This document shows, piece by piece, positions 4,921-28,390 of a DNA stretch of 54,982 nt. The stretch covers positions 1 through 54,982 of the forward strand of contig JAZRUJ010000067.1 of NCBI GenBank assembly GCA_045652445.1, read 5' to 3'. A model generated the notes under the pieces. The model searched no databases. It worked only from the letters and a program-made list of their open reading frames with translations, and had not been told where the DNA came from. The translations under genes and the position numbers were made by a program. This stretch comes from Eubacteriales bacterium (GTDB lineage: Bacteria; Bacillota; Clostridia; Oscillospirales; UBA644). Every line of letters starts with the position of its first letter. Position 1 is the stretch's first letter.

Positions 4921-5469
4921 TTATTTACCCTTACCAGCCTTACCTTCCTTCTGGCGGACATATTCGCCCTGATAGCGAACACCCTTGCCATGGTAGGGTT
5001 CGGGGGGTTTGATACCGCGGATTTCAGCTGCGACCTGTCCGACCCGTTGCTTATCGGCACCGGAAACGACGATCAGGTTGGGCTGAGGAACTTCCAGGCT
5101 GATGCCTTCGGTTTCTTCAACGGATACGGGGTGAGAGAAGCCCAGGGTCAGGTTGACTGCTTTACCCTGTTTTGCTGCTCTGTAACCCACACCCTGGATT
5201 TCCAGGGTCTTGGAATAACCGGCGGTGACGCCTTCAATCATATTGGCGATCAGAGTTCTGGTCAAACCGTGCAGAGAACGATTCATTTTTTCATCGTTGG
5301 GACGGGTAACCAAAACAGTTTCACCTTCCACAGTTACGGTCATTGCGGGATGGATATCTCTTTCGAGAGTTCCCTTGGGACCCTTAACGGTGATGTGGTT
5401 GGTTTCGGGCACCAATGTTACGGTAACACCGGCGGGTATATTTATAGGCTTTCTACCAATTCTTGACAT
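4921..5469 (-). CDS. rplF: 50S ribosomal protein uL6
   Basis: [17 protein letters not shown] is a typical L6 start. 182 aa. Confidence 0.95.
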
Positions 5470-25880: not shown

Positions 25881-26837
25881 TTATTCTTGGATTTCCTGCT
25901 TGACCGTCATCGCTTTTTTCTTTCGATGTCGCCGAATGGGGATAAAGATGGCGAGGAACACCACCGTCCCGGGAATTATTACGAAAAATCCCACGTAAGG
26001 CAACGCAGAAACCAGCACCACGAACAGATTCCGGAAAAAGATGCCGATATCCGCCATAGCGTCGGCAAGATTCGTCCCGATCTCTTCCCAAATCGTGGGT
26101 TCCGCGACGGGAATGGGTTCGGTGGATTCAGTAACGTAGAGCGAGACGGTGGCGTATTCCACCTGATTATCGTATTTCCGTAAAGTAGATTCACAGGATT
26201 CGATTTGATAACGAACGTTGGACAGGCGATCTTGCAACGAAATAATATCGCTCACCGATTTTGCCGACTCCAACAACGCCAAAAGACTGGTTTCTTCCGC
26301 CCGTAGGGCTTTCAGGCGGGATTGGGTATCCACGTACTGCAAGGTAACGTCGCTCATCTGCTCGGTCTTCCGGGTAACCGCCCCTAACGAGTCAATCAAT
26401 TCCAGGACACTATCGGTCTCTCCCACGGGGATCCGCAGAGTCATAGACGCATAGCGAGAAGTTTTGGTAGGCGTATTTTCCGACGACCGTTCCACGTATC
26501 CCCCGCTGGCAAGAACACCTTCCCGTACCCGGGTGAGAAATTCGTCAAACCGGTCGCTTCTCGCTTCCAAATCCACAGTGCGGATCAGTTTCCGATCGTC
26601 GCTGACCGTTGAATCGCTGCCGGAAGCAAGATTTCCCGACGAATCCGGAGATTCGCTTACAAAGGAGTCCGGGGAAGCCACGCTGTCTTTTCCGGGAGAC
26701 TCAAAAAATTCCTCTCCGCCCAAAGGAAAATCCTCCGAAACATTCTCTCTGCCCCCGGGAACCCCGGCACTACACCCCGCAAGCAGAGCAAAAACCAACA
26801 CCGCGGACAAAAACACAAACAGGACTTTTCGAGTCAT
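25881..26837 (-). CDS. DUF4349-like lipoprotein
   Basis: Lipobox LLAGC after MTRKVLFVFLSAVLVFA. The central region with coiled-coil (QYVDTQSRLKALRAEETSLLALLE...LQDRLSNVRYQIE) and two C-terminal TM helices resembles DUF4349. Start chosen at the ATG at 26837. Confidence 0.72.
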   Translation of the reverse strand: MTRKVLFVFLSAVLVFALLAGCSAGVPGGRENVSEDFPLGGEEFFESPGKDSVASPDSFVSESPDSSGNLASGSDSTVSDDRKLIRTVDLEARSDRFDEFLTRVREGVLASGGYVERSSENTPTKTSRYASMTLRIPVGETDSVLELIDSLGAVTRKTEQMSDVTLQYVDTQSRLKALRAEETSLLALLESAKSVSDIISLQDRLSNVRYQIESCESTLRKYDNQVEYATVSLYVTESTEPIPVAEPTIWEEIGTNLADAMADIGIFFRNLFVVLVSALPYVGFFVIIPGTVVFLAIFIPIRRHRKKKAMTVKQEIQE

Positions 26838-26930
26838 ACACTCAACCCCTTTTTTTTTCAGTATAGCATAAAAAAACCCGGCTAACAAGATTTTTTCAAA
26901 AAAATCTATAAAAAATTTGCAATTTCCCCC

Positions 26931-26959
26931 TTGACAATCGTCTGAAAATGTATTATAAT
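26931..26959 (+). promoter_or_regulatory. sigma-70 type promoter for tRNA-Gly
   Basis: TTGACA (26931-26936), 17-nt spacer, TATAAT (26954-26959). Confidence 0.75.
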
Positions 26960-26976
26960 AGTCAGGTAATTAACAA

Positions 26977-27050
26977 GCAGGTGTAGTTCAATGGTAGAAC
27001 TCCAGCCTTCCAAGCTGGCCACGGGGGTTCGATTCCCCTCACCTGCTCCA
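26977..27050 (+). tRNA. tRNA-Gly (anticodon UCC), CCA encoded
   Basis: Manual cloverleaf. Acceptor GCAGGTG/CACCTGC and D-arm GTTC...GAAC. Anticodon stem CCAGC/GCTGG with loop CT-TCC-AA. T-arm GGGGG-TTCGATT-CCCCT. Discriminator T followed by CCA. Confidence 0.92.
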
Positions 27051-27534
27051 TTTTTTTTATAAAATTTAGGATTCGTTACTGCGAATCCATTTTTTTGTGC
27101 AAAAAACGGAATCGAACGCCGAGGGGGTGAATGACAGTCCGGGGGACTGTCAGAGCCGAGGCCGCCCTGTCCGCAGACAGGGGCGATTCCCCTCACCTGC
27201 TCCATTTTTTATAAAATTTAGGATTCGTTACTGCGAATCCATTTTTTTGTGCAAAAAACGGAATCGAACGCCCTTCGGGGAACCAGCCCTTTTGCGGTGC
27301 CCAAAAAAACCGTCGCATCCGTAGGTGCTTGCTTTTTTCGACCGCTGCACCACAACCGTCTCGCTTCTTCCGCCCCCGGCGGTGCTTCGGCGGTTGTGCC
27401 CACCTGCTCCATTTTTTATAAAATTTAGGATTCGTTACTGCGAATCCATTTTTTTTGTGCAAAAAACGGAATCGAACGCCCTTCGGGGAACCAGCCCTTT
27501 TGCGGTGCTTCGGTGGTTGTGCCCACCTGCTCCA
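27040..27534 (+). repeat. tRNA-Gly 3'-end / terminator-module direct repeat array (three units plus terminal core)
   Basis: CACCTGCTCCA occurs at 27040-27050, 27194-27204, 27401-27411 and 27524-27534. A 68-70-nt module follows the first three copies (27051-27120, 27205-27272, 27412-27480) and differs only in T-run lengths. Variable inserts lie at 27121-27193, 27273-27400 and 27481-27523. Confidence 0.9.
27069..27096 (+). terminator. intrinsic terminator after tRNA-Gly (first of three identical copies)
   Basis: GGATTCG-ttactg-CGAATCC followed by A and T7. The same element recurs at about 27221-27248 and 27428-27456. Confidence 0.75.
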
Positions 27535-27566
27535 TTGTTTGAAATCAAAAGATGGATTCCTTTTTT
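27532..27566 (+). terminator. distinct hairpin plus T-run after the last repeat core
   Basis: CCAT-tg-TTTGA-aa-TCAAA-ag-ATGG, then ATTCC and TTTTTT. Confidence 0.55.
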
Positions 27567-27585
27567 ATTCCCAAATAGTTTCCTC

Positions 27586-27614
27586 TTGCATTTTTTATAA
27601 AAATATGGTATGAT
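27586..27614 (+). promoter_or_regulatory. sigma-70 type promoter (extended -10)
   Basis: TTGCAT (27586-27591), 17-nt spacer, TGgTATGAT (27606-27614). Confidence 0.7.
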
Positions 27615-27655
27615 ATAAGATATATGGTTAAACCATTGTTGAAAGGAGTCAGTTC

Positions 27656-28390
27656 ATGGAATTTAGCGTGAATCATCCGATTCTGTTCGTCCTTGTGGGT
27701 ATCATTGTGGCGGCAGTTTTGGGGCAATCAATCTTCTTTTTGGTCAAGGCCTGGAAACGGGGCGTTGCCATTGGAATGGACAAGAAAAAACTGCGGAGCA
27801 TTGCGGTAACGGCGGGGGTTTTTACCATCGCACCGGCGGTTGCCATCGTCATCAGTGTTATCGCTCTTTCGAAAAAATTGGGGCTGGCACTCCCTTGGCT
27901 GCGGTTGAGCGTGGTAGGCTCCCTGTCTTATGAAGCCATTGCGGCGGAAAATACGTCTCTTGCCATGGGACTTTCCGGAAGCACTGCTCCCAATGCTTCT
28001 CAATTTGTTACCATTGTTTTAGTTATGACCCTGTCGATTATGGTGGGGATTTGGCTGGTTCCCGTAATCTGCAAACGATTGCAAAACGGCATGGGAAAGT
28101 TGGAACAGCGGGATAAAAAATGGGCGGACGTTTTTCAATCCGCCATGTTTATCGGTATGATTGCCGCTTTTGTAGGGTTTGTGTTCTGCGATGTTTCCGG
28201 GGCTTTTTCCGGAAAATTGGAAGGGCTGATTCCCGTATTGGTTATGGCGGTTTCCGCGGTGGTTATGGCAGTTTGCGGACTTGTGGCAACCAAATTTAAA
28301 AAGATTCATTGGATTGCCGACTATGCTCTGCCCGTGTCTCTTTTGGTGGGTATGGCTAGTGCGATTCCCATCACCGAATGGTTGTCGTAA
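27656..28390 (+). CDS. polytopic membrane protein, DUF5058-like
   Basis: 244 aa with about 6 TM segments. The motif LPWLRLSVVGSLSYE matches my recollection of DUF5058. AAGGAG RBS. Confidence 0.6.
   Translation: MEFSVNHPILFVLVGIIVAAVLGQSIFFLVKAWKRGVAIGMDKKKLRSIAVTAGVFTIAPAVAIVISVIALSKKLGLALPWLRLSVVGSLSYEAIAAENTSLAMGLSGSTAPNASQFVTIVLVMTLSIMVGIWLVPVICKRLQNGMGKLEQRDKKWADVFQSAMFIGMIAAFVGFVFCDVSGAFSGKLEGLIPVLVMAVSAVVMAVCGLVATKFKKIHWIADYALPVSLLVGMASAIPITEWLS

Follow-up and report, generated by a model that had tools for sequence, protein, structure and literature searches.

Why should a single tRNA gene be followed, on its own strand, by three more copies of its 3′ end? The question is raised by contig JAZRUJ010000067.1 of assembly GCA_045652445.1 (Eubacteriales bacterium), a stretch of 54,982 nucleotides (nt) called the window below. 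In it, the tRNA-Gly(UCC) gene precedes an array of three short units, for which a first-pass annotation had put forward several origins: stacked attachment scars of miniature integrative elements, tandem amplification of a tRNA-targeting element resembling a miniature inverted-repeat transposable element (MITE), or a series of small RNAs tagged with a tRNA-like end. Here we show that the first unit, U1, truly belongs to a widespread family of elements of about 150 nt, associated with tRNA and transfer-messenger RNA (tmRNA) genes and carrying a folded core named E. As to the array as a whole, we give about even chances to the view that it represents stacked mini-insertions at tRNA-Gly, devoid of a recombinase, which grew both by insertion and by local duplication.

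The units are U1 (27051-27204), U2 (27205-27411) and U3 (27412-27534). Together with their surroundings they comprise the following features (L numbers designate loci fetched for comparison):

26931..26959, + strand: promoter of tRNA-Gly, TTGACA-17 nt-TATAAT, matching the consensus at 12/12 positions and kept upstream of tRNA-Gly in L009-L011.
26977..27050, + strand: tRNA-Gly(UCC), CCA encoded (ARAGORN; Rfam tRNA, 70.3 bits).
27040-27050, + strand (21-nt version 27030-27050): repeat copy 1, inside tRNA-Gly.
27051..27120, + strand: module copy 1, with T8, a terminator hairpin (27069-27088), T7 and then GTGCAAAAAACGGAATCGAACGCC.
27107-27114, + strand: armA, CGGAATCG, in module copy 1, antisense to the tRNA T-loop/T-stem.
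27121..27184, + strand: E core of U1 (covariance model match, fold z-score, family covariation), beginning with stem a with its tandem G.A, an internal loop and hairpin 1 (27132-27152, loop GGG).
27165-27171 and 27176-27182, + strand: hairpin 2 of this core, CCCTGTC and GACAGGG around a CGCA loop.
27184..27204, + strand: repeat copy 2, armB plus tail, CGATTCCCCTCACCTGCTCCA, 21 nt from C56 of the T-loop to CCA.
27205..27272, + strand: module copy 2, hairpin at 27221-27240 (terminator scan), 100% identical to copy 1 over 68 nt.
27273..27400, + strand: insert 2, 128 nt, with a terminator-like hairpin (27315-27328) and direct repeats GCGGTGC (27294-27300 and 27379-27385).
27401..27411, + strand: repeat copy 3, 11 nt.
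27412..27480, + strand: module copy 3, hairpin at 27428-27447, one T more.
27481..27523, + strand: insert 3, 43 nt (direct reading; repeat-family comparison, 95% identity over 39 nt).
27524..27534, + strand: repeat copy 4, 11 nt.
27535..27582, + strand: junction segment specific to the lineage, comprising an imperfect hairpin and T6, without counterpart in relatives.
27586..27614, + strand: promoter of the DUF5058 operon, TTGCAT-17 nt-TATGAT (alignment with L002, L003, L132 and L133).

The anatomy given by the first-pass annotation is confirmed at the positions it gave. The repeat CACCTGCTCCA occurs exactly at 27040, 27194, 27401 and 27524, always on the + strand; at no more than one mismatch the window holds 6 matches for 0.62 expected, a number that 0/100 shuffles reach. 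Copy 2, already singled out as the longer one, shares 21 nt with the end of tRNA-Gly, and copies 3 and 4 share 11 nt each. After each of copies 1-3 stands the same module of 68-70 nt, whose copies differ solely in the length of their T-runs (T8/T6/T6 after CCA and T7/T7/T8 after the hairpin, in copies 1/2/3), so that exact repeats between units do not exceed about 55-60 nt. Every module contains GGATTCGTTACTGCGAATCC followed by a T-run, a terminator-like hairpin with which the terminator scan agrees (7 terminator-like sites in the array region for 1.4 expected). Inserts 1, 2 and 3 measure 73, 128 and 43 nt. A scan reveals no promoter inside the units, and each CCA has a terminator after it. 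Finally, GGCGTTCGATTCCG, which had been taken for an inverted, decayed copy of the tRNA T-arm, turns out to be the key feature of the locus: in relatives this segment varies with the neighbouring tRNA, and in U1 the CGATTCC of copy 2 pairs with the GGAATCG of armA to form a helix, P1. Two side observations concern the same region. The stem of the module hairpin, GGATTCG/CGAATCC, has the same sequence as the closing helices of E elements behind tRNAs with a GAATCC T-loop (L053, L064, L093 and L128), and could be an empty closing helix or a coincidence. There is also a weak, partial match to the Rfam permuted tmRNA model at 27023-27131 (20.8 bits for a threshold of 47 bits), the sole Rfam match to overlap the core, to which the T-arm of tRNA-Gly itself contributes and which is due to the ability of GGGGGTGAA, at the start of the core, to pair with the acceptor 3′ strand of tRNA-Gly; this 8/9 pairing is equally possible with U1's own tail, and other loci do not conserve it.

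Insert 1, far from being an unrelated filler, belongs to a structured family. A pattern drawn from its conserved core (TGAATGA-N4-CCGGGGG-N4-TCAGAG) is present on at least 120 metagenome contigs, and the counts of E copies below cover the matches listed. It is found in 2 of 2.9 million viral contigs, neither of them of the tRNA type, and has no match in the phage collection or in the plasmid collection. None of the families of Rfam 15 matches the core in the regions searched, no description of the element was found in the literature, and its sequence is absent from the text supplements of a human-microbiome RNA catalogue. By eye, the core shows no resemblance to the hammerhead, to ribozymes like that of hepatitis delta virus or to group II domain V. 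The two N4 segments that flank the hairpin loop, which the pattern leaves free, are complementary in 96-99 of 99 distinct sequences. For hairpin 1 and stem a together, 97% of the cells are paired, with 150 double-change cells, a result that 0/500 shuffles equal, and slid controls pair at just 29-49%. Hairpin 2 occurs as 20 distinct stems around a near-invariant CGCA loop in 90/100 distinct downstream sequences. The fold is a three-way junction between the closing helix P1, hairpin 2 and an arm in which an invariant 7-by-3 internal loop separates stem a from a hairpin of 9 bp whose loop is GGG.

The covariance model built from the family, R1, has a single match in the window (27099-27194, 69.6 bits, E 4.5e-15), and three matches in L010 and one in L009; the fold z-score of 27121-27204 is -2.5. 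G.U pairs are very rare, as rare as A.C, which would be a wobble on the opposite strand. Wobble pairs could not be used to assign a strand: both kinds are equally scarce in hairpin 1, and the excess of 7 versus 2 in hairpin 2 comes from one subfamily. Their rarity and their symmetry between strands lean towards a structure formed at the DNA level, probably in a single strand, and are still compatible with RNA. L018 (around 20-130 and 200-330) has a variant core with CCTTGGACGG in place of CCGGGGG in the loop of hairpin 1, closed by GGATTTGAA/TTCAAATCC, and its second copy ends with a near-complete T-arm plus CCA; the family is therefore wider than the pattern. In L104 (around 2040-2090) and L125, extra short sequences are nested within hairpin 2, and a TnpV-family gene lies on the opposite strand about 200 nt upstream in L104.

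What ties the family to tRNAs is a set of regularities around the core. A tRNA-type 5′ arm is present in 40/127 copies. In 26 cases, a first unit follows a tRNA or tmRNA gene of the same strand at a distance of 60-82 nt, three further matches being second or displaced units 205-233 nt behind the tRNA. Ten kinds of genes are concerned (Ala, Gly, Gln, Glu, Val, Ser, Leu, Phe, Pro and tmRNA), which answers the question of whether units like U1 occur at other tRNA loci. The polarity is almost absolute, with 36 pairings in which the tRNA lies upstream on the same strand versus 5 in all other arrangements together. The layout is constant: the tRNA, a terminator or short spacer, an antisense arm, the E core and a sense copy of the tRNA end. 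The arm, 7-9 nt long, is antisense to the T-loop/T-stem of the local tRNA, while the sense copy extends over 20-22 nt from T-loop to CCA of that same tRNA; at 18 tRNA loci, the second copy of the last 12 nt of the tRNA starts 126-147 nt past the gene. Counted backward from CCA, identity with the tRNA spans 20-22 nt in 13/16 rows, and 21-24 nt in 16/16 when one mismatch is allowed. From this uniform length it follows that the boundary of the repeat lies in the T-loop whatever the tRNA. Past CCA, anything from no similarity to 100% identity is seen between the two copies.

Pairing of the 5′ arm involves the initial 5-9 nt of the tRNA-end copy, and the resulting closing helix exists in 16 distinct versions among 25 loci, each following the T-loop sequence of its tRNA. 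This result rests on the anchored analysis; an unconstrained search for closing helices did no better than on shuffled sequences. The MITE-like element that had been envisaged is therefore right in part. Recurrence behind ten kinds of genes fits it; E elements cannot be called classical MITEs, since the arms vary from one locus to the next and fit the tRNA found there, and the repeat measures 20-22 nt or more.

Comparison with relatives shows the site in several states. On the side of the DUF4349 gene, synteny is preserved in three related assemblies (L009-L011), which share the promoter, tRNA-Gly(UCC) and then, 71-196 nt downstream, tRNA-Ala(CGC). The empty allele that the first-pass annotation suggested looking for is found in L011, where a plain 71-nt spacer separates tRNA-Gly from tRNA-Ala and no element is present. 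In L010 the site is filled: an ortholog of U1 sits between the two tRNAs, and the spacer past its second tRNA-end copy matches the native spacer of L011. L009 represents a deleted state, with the module tail only (GTGCAAAAACCGGAATCGAG) ahead of tRNA-Ala. Empty, filled and deleted states of this site thus all exist. The last 24 nt of module copy 1 are orthologous in L009 and L010, and the front of the module is barely alignable between U1 and L010. Between the core of U1 and that of its L010 ortholog there are 8 differences, and three compensatory pairs in two hairpins account for 6 of them. In both L009 and L010, an E motif is also found behind tRNA-Ala, accompanied by an inverted segment of the tRNA-Ala T-arm and by a tRNA-Ala-like 3′ end. 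The window itself has no tRNA-Ala(CGC). The hairpin after copy 4 had been proposed as the ancestral terminator of tRNA-Gly; this did not hold, the ancestral neighbour being tRNA-Ala(CGC) in the three relatives.

Also missing from the window is a segment of about 8 kb with genes for the metabolism of sugars and nucleosides, which in GCA_045542115.1 (where L009 and L002 are one contig) stands between the tRNA-Gly/Ala pair and DUF5058. Similarity to the relatives is regained only from the DUF5058 promoter onwards, near 27583. The upstream neighbour of DUF5058 differs in every relative examined, which points to a hot spot of rearrangement; for the same reason, a synteny search from DUF5058 gave no tRNA locus.

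U2 and U3 are of another nature. Taking away from insert 2 the 85 nt enclosed by its GCGGTGC repeats yields insert 3, apart from one C/T difference, so that U2 and U3 are paralogs separated by a slippage-type deletion and the description of the inserts as unrelated fails for this pair too. The single match of the covariance model in the window leaves inserts 2 and 3 without an E core; their fold z-scores of about 0 to -1 on both strands give no fold signal, and the idea that they are structured RNAs was rejected on that ground. No relatives of the two inserts were found among about 130 fetched loci, nor any relative carrying units 2 or 3. They are not decayed tRNA-Gly or tRNA-Ala pseudogenes either, their alignments being like those of shuffled sequences (p = 0.29, 0.90, 0.94 and 0.52). 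Across 185,579 representative genomes, the module hairpin has one chance match only, in an acidobacterial genome. The three modules of the window are practically identical, whereas the orthologous modules of relatives have diverged; the first-pass annotation was thus justified in taking the identity of the modules as a sign of recent duplication or gene conversion.

Stacks exist elsewhere, in L027, in L123 and behind tRNA-Ala of L010. In the latter, the proximal unit is new, with a terminator and an E variant unlike those of the distal unit; the distal unit is shared with L009, scores 65.7 versus 77.1 bits for the proximal one and, by eye, lacks a loop G and the tRNA-like tail. One tRNA-Glu locus was sampled five times: its distal unit stops inside the core in two strains (L110 and L119) and has undergone further deletion in the remaining three. 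Tails decay as well: CCA is lost in L009, L015, L017 and the second unit of L053, and substitutions are seen in L020, L082 and L128. The idea of stacked attachment scars therefore stands as regards the empty and filled alleles and the stacks at other loci, and has to be amended in that the array grew partly by local duplication. Two further loci are worth describing. Behind tRNA-Ser(GGA) of L027 (minus strand, around 5050-5250), the repeated terminators differ solely by an inverted loop, TTCAC versus GTGAA, inside a 15-bp palindrome, which suggests hairpin flipping or strand switching during duplication. Behind tRNA-Leu(CAA) of L070 (minus strand), the tRNA terminator is followed by 250 nt of unrelated cargo, made of short hairpin repeats of the GATATATCAT type, then by 12 nt copied from the tRNA end and by a second terminator; units bounded by tRNA ends are thus not confined to the E core.

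All E copies are intergenic, the window holding one in its 55 kb, and their orientation relative to the upstream gene is unbiased (48 on the same strand versus 44 on the opposite one). Cores away from tRNAs lie within the helices of other repeats, and their presence varies between copies of those repeats. Many such loci share a left arm, GGTAGCGAAGCG (e.g. L023, 6378-6400), containing GCGAAGC, a DNA mini-hairpin of unusual stability, and GTAG, the tetranucleotide conserved at REP elements. The internal loop (GGTAGTGAAT) has GTAG once more, and it is exactly ahead of this second GTAG that the distal units truncated in L110 and L119 stop. Another context, seen at L039 (2950-3130) and about 20 similar loci (among them L026, L038, L043, L066 and L090), resembles a free-standing small-RNA gene, in which a conserved -10-like box precedes the closing helix and core, and a single-stranded tail of 25 nt, moderately conserved, leads to a terminator; it has no match in Rfam.

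No recombinase was found near the elements examined. As had been noted, the window shows no integrase: the genes flanking the array are housekeeping ones (DUF4349, threonine synthase, DUF5058 and M20 peptidase), and neither an integrase nor a transposase is among the 25 phage families listed for its 52 open reading frames (ORFs). One ORF of this otherwise housekeeping window strongly matches the phage-family DNA methyltransferase phrog_11787 (E 7.6e-131). A crude motif scan detected no Y1 transposase (RAYT) in the window or at any locus, no integrase lies beside the tandem loci L027, L123 and L053, and no recurrent protein is encoded next to the E core across loci. The largest cluster of neighbouring ORFs (12 loci) was discarded, its representative spanning the position of E and being probably spurious.

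How do these observations compare with known systems? When a genomic island integrates at a tRNA gene, the gene is restored and a fragment of its 3′ end stays behind (PMC4383910), and at the ssrA gene of Dehalococcoides, tandem islands inserted at the T-loop are bounded by 20-bp repeats (PMC3146451). The latter are the closest parallel to our array (PMC3146451). With such tRNA/tmRNA islands the E units have in common a regenerated target gene, a displaced 3′ fragment in direct orientation, an identity block of about 20 nt from T-loop to 3′ end, stacks at one tRNA gene, a conserved sequence adjoining the distal repeat and empty-site alleles in relatives (PMC4383910, PMC3146451). In the window this translates into an intact tRNA-Gly followed by three same-strand copies of its 3′ end, with the block that starts in the T-loop retained in copy 2. 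The differences are equally clear. Islands measure kilobases and encode an integrase, whereas the intervals here are of 123-207 nt, are gene-less and contain no integrase gene; a single E core is shared by units at ten kinds of tRNA/tmRNA genes, whose sequences the arms match in each case; and this core is a covarying three-way junction also found off tRNA genes. The structure is also compatible with a cis-mobilizable element or accretion array, in which an element flanked by att sites and lacking its own integrase would be moved by that of a resident element.

Three other systems share parts of this picture. REP, BIME and REPIN elements, and the hairpin ends of IS200/IS605-type elements with their non-autonomous derivatives, are reportedly short, dispersed and intergenic, often placed just past terminators, nested in mosaics and made of imperfect hairpins with conserved unpaired bases, with no transposase gene adjacent. 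In IS608, a short guide next to the hairpin is said to pair with the cleavage or target sequence, which recalls the helix between E arm and T-loop. E differs from them by its three-way junction instead of a single hairpin, by an arm helix of 7-9 bp instead of 4 nt, by carrying the 3′ end of the target gene and by having no Y1 transposase linked to it. The 178-bp repeats distal to tyrT in Escherichia coli, from which RtT RNA derives, are reportedly tandem units downstream of a tRNA, each with about 19 nt of its 3′ end including CCA. Processing of the tyrT read-through transcript releases a small RNA. The analogy is architectural only, since the Rfam RtT model has no match up to an E-value of 10 over 26700-27800; moreover, tyrT is said to be one enterobacterial locus, whereas E is found behind many tRNA types, and to have neither an antisense arm nor a conserved three-way junction. 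Lastly, the folded single-stranded recombination sites of integrons (attC) and of the CTX phage (attP) reportedly arise when two inverted segments of one strand pair across a structured spacer, with stems in which the structure is conserved and not the sequence. They are used by IntI or XerCD on other targets; no such enzyme is linked to E, whose target would be the T-loop of a tRNA and which would restore the gene.

We can propose the following scenario for the formation of such arrays. A unit would enter the tRNA gene at a fixed point in the T-loop and supply a replacement 3′ end, so that the tRNA is kept intact as with integrative islands, and the old 3′ end would stay behind as the distal repeat. 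As the unit encodes no recombinase, an enzyme encoded elsewhere would have to act on it, the folded core and the helix between arm and T-loop being the likely recognition structure, probably in single-stranded DNA. The stack would then grow by further entries on the tRNA-proximal side and by unequal crossing-over between repeats, U3 being presumably a copy of U2 shortened by 85 nt through a deletion between 7-nt repeats. Transcription of the tRNA most likely ends at the terminator of the first module, in which case the distal units would mostly be silent passengers. Site-specific insertion into a tRNA gene has just this combination as its signature: a fixed boundary in the T-loop, a regenerated tRNA, alleles with and without the element and growth on the proximal side (PMC4383910).

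Several observations weigh against this scenario of stacked insertions. At some loci the repeat runs through the native terminator (L123, 100%; L027, 93%; L022, 96%), and the terminator that precedes E is not co-conserved with it; local duplication accounts for this as well as, or better than, the import of complete units. Tailed units are found behind terminators of protein genes with no cognate tRNA adjacent (L033 and the second unit of L053), and 87/127 cores lie away from tRNAs, nested in other intergenic repeats. In the window, U2 and U3 have the 11-nt repeat only, with no E core, fold signal or relatives, and the model accounts for them solely as duplicated passengers; the contrast between its near-identical modules and the diverged orthologs argues for a recent event of local duplication or gene conversion, and against three independent arrivals. 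A conventional sequence-specific integrase is not expected to serve ten kinds of tRNA/tmRNA genes, and arms matched to each locus require either a guide-like mechanism or many separate lineages. No enzyme, excised form or population polymorphism of the window array was observed.

These points lead to the question of whether duplication did all the work. A resident REP-like E palindrome would have landed once behind a tRNA terminator, and its copies would have arisen by tandem duplication only, through slippage or unequal crossing-over of the segment from T-loop to E, aided by the inverted T-loop match and with no site-specific integration. L027 and L123, in which the series tRNA end, terminator, arm and E is present twice with no tRNA end after the last E, are what such a history would leave, as are native terminators lying within the repeats, identical modules in the window, a U3 derived from U2 by an 85-nt deletion, a distal tRNA-Glu unit truncated inside E (L110 and L119) and a majority of E copies in mosaic repeats off tRNAs. 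It leaves unexplained, however, why the left edge falls in the T-loop in 16/16 locus rows with various tRNA types, and why the 5′ arm matches each tRNA. In addition, the proximal terminator and E variant behind tRNA-Ala of L010 differ from the distal ones, and the sequence after the second copy in L010 is the native spacer of L011, which is the pattern of an insertion. We hence regard duplication alone as unlikely. A similar, low probability is given to the idea that the E core and its tRNA-derived 3′ tail are a functional small RNA, read through or co-transcribed with the tRNA and trimmed at CCA like a tRNA, in which the core would be a protein-binding scaffold and the tail an acceptor-end mimic or decoy, or a 20-nt guide. 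The three-way junction with its invariant loops, asymmetric 7-by-3 internal loop and strong covariation would suit an RNA, as would the z-score of U1, the CCA usually kept in the tail and the resemblance of one non-tRNA context to a free-standing small-RNA gene. Moreover, the L010 element between tRNA-Gly and tRNA-Ala has no terminator hairpin and so must belong to the primary transcript of the tRNA operon. At most loci, though, a terminator precedes the unit, only 4-20 nt from the arm, and no consistent promoter is seen; the core is not oriented with respect to neighbouring genes, G.U is as rare as A.C, which is unusual under a constraint on RNA only, the tails are decaying at several loci, and inserts 2 and 3 of the window give no fold signal.

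Two other explanations find far less room. One is that the units are remnants of kilobase-scale prophages or integrative conjugative elements at tRNA-Gly, deleted internally. A direct repeat of the tRNA 3′ end from the T-loop is indeed their classical signature (PMC4383910, PMC3146451), and the locus is a hot spot of rearrangement that lacks tRNA-Ala and about 8 kb relative to GCA_045542115.1. Yet the spacing of tRNA ends at 18 loci is too constant for independent deletions, the units examined adjoin no island genes, and the core, almost absent from viral contigs, is not found in the phage and plasmid collections; the constant size of the units in particular makes degraded islands unlikely, and we rate this origin as very improbable. 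Even less credible is an assembly artefact, in which sequences of different strains, some having E and others insert 2, or differing by the 85 nt, would have been chained through the shared module. Inserts 2 and 3 do look like alleles of one sequence with the same flanking module and core, and the window is apparently a whole metagenome-type contig. On the other hand, exact repeats of at most about 55-60 nt are below common read lengths, so that ordinary reads should span the units, the ortholog of U1 in L010 comes from an independent assembly, and several independent assemblies hold comparable stacks; short exact repeats and a shared architecture thus leave an artefact hardly any chance.

Returning to stacked insertions, a bolder form of this view is that the 7-9-nt arm is a programmable guide, with which E would find a matching T-loop, of any tRNA or tmRNA gene, by base pairing in a folded single strand and would insert at that place with a new 3′ end for the gene, in a manner comparable in principle to the pairing of the IS608 guide with its cleavage site and to bridge RNAs. 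We hold this to be improbable at present. In a variant of it, the core and its 20-nt tail identical to the tRNA may be a scaffold-plus-guide RNA, serving an unlinked effector that would recognise the universal GGTTC motif beside the match. If the guide idea is true, E would represent a new class, a guide-directed mini-transposon that restores its target and is served by an unlinked enzyme.

As a family of insertions targeted to tRNA genes, E has apparently not been described before, the targeting of tRNA genes itself being well known. The elements usually found at tRNA and tmRNA genes are large and encode their own sequence-specific integrase, while E is gene-less, measures about 150 nt and relies on one folded core, so that it poses the question of how the target is chosen and copied. 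Should base pairing set the target, E would be a compact, reprogrammable means of inserting DNA beside essential genes without damaging them. On a more conservative reading, the family accounts for the short arrays of 'tRNA fragments' that confuse tRNA annotation, marks a hot spot of rearrangement and brings to the known repertoire of gut Clostridia a widespread structured element with strong covariation.

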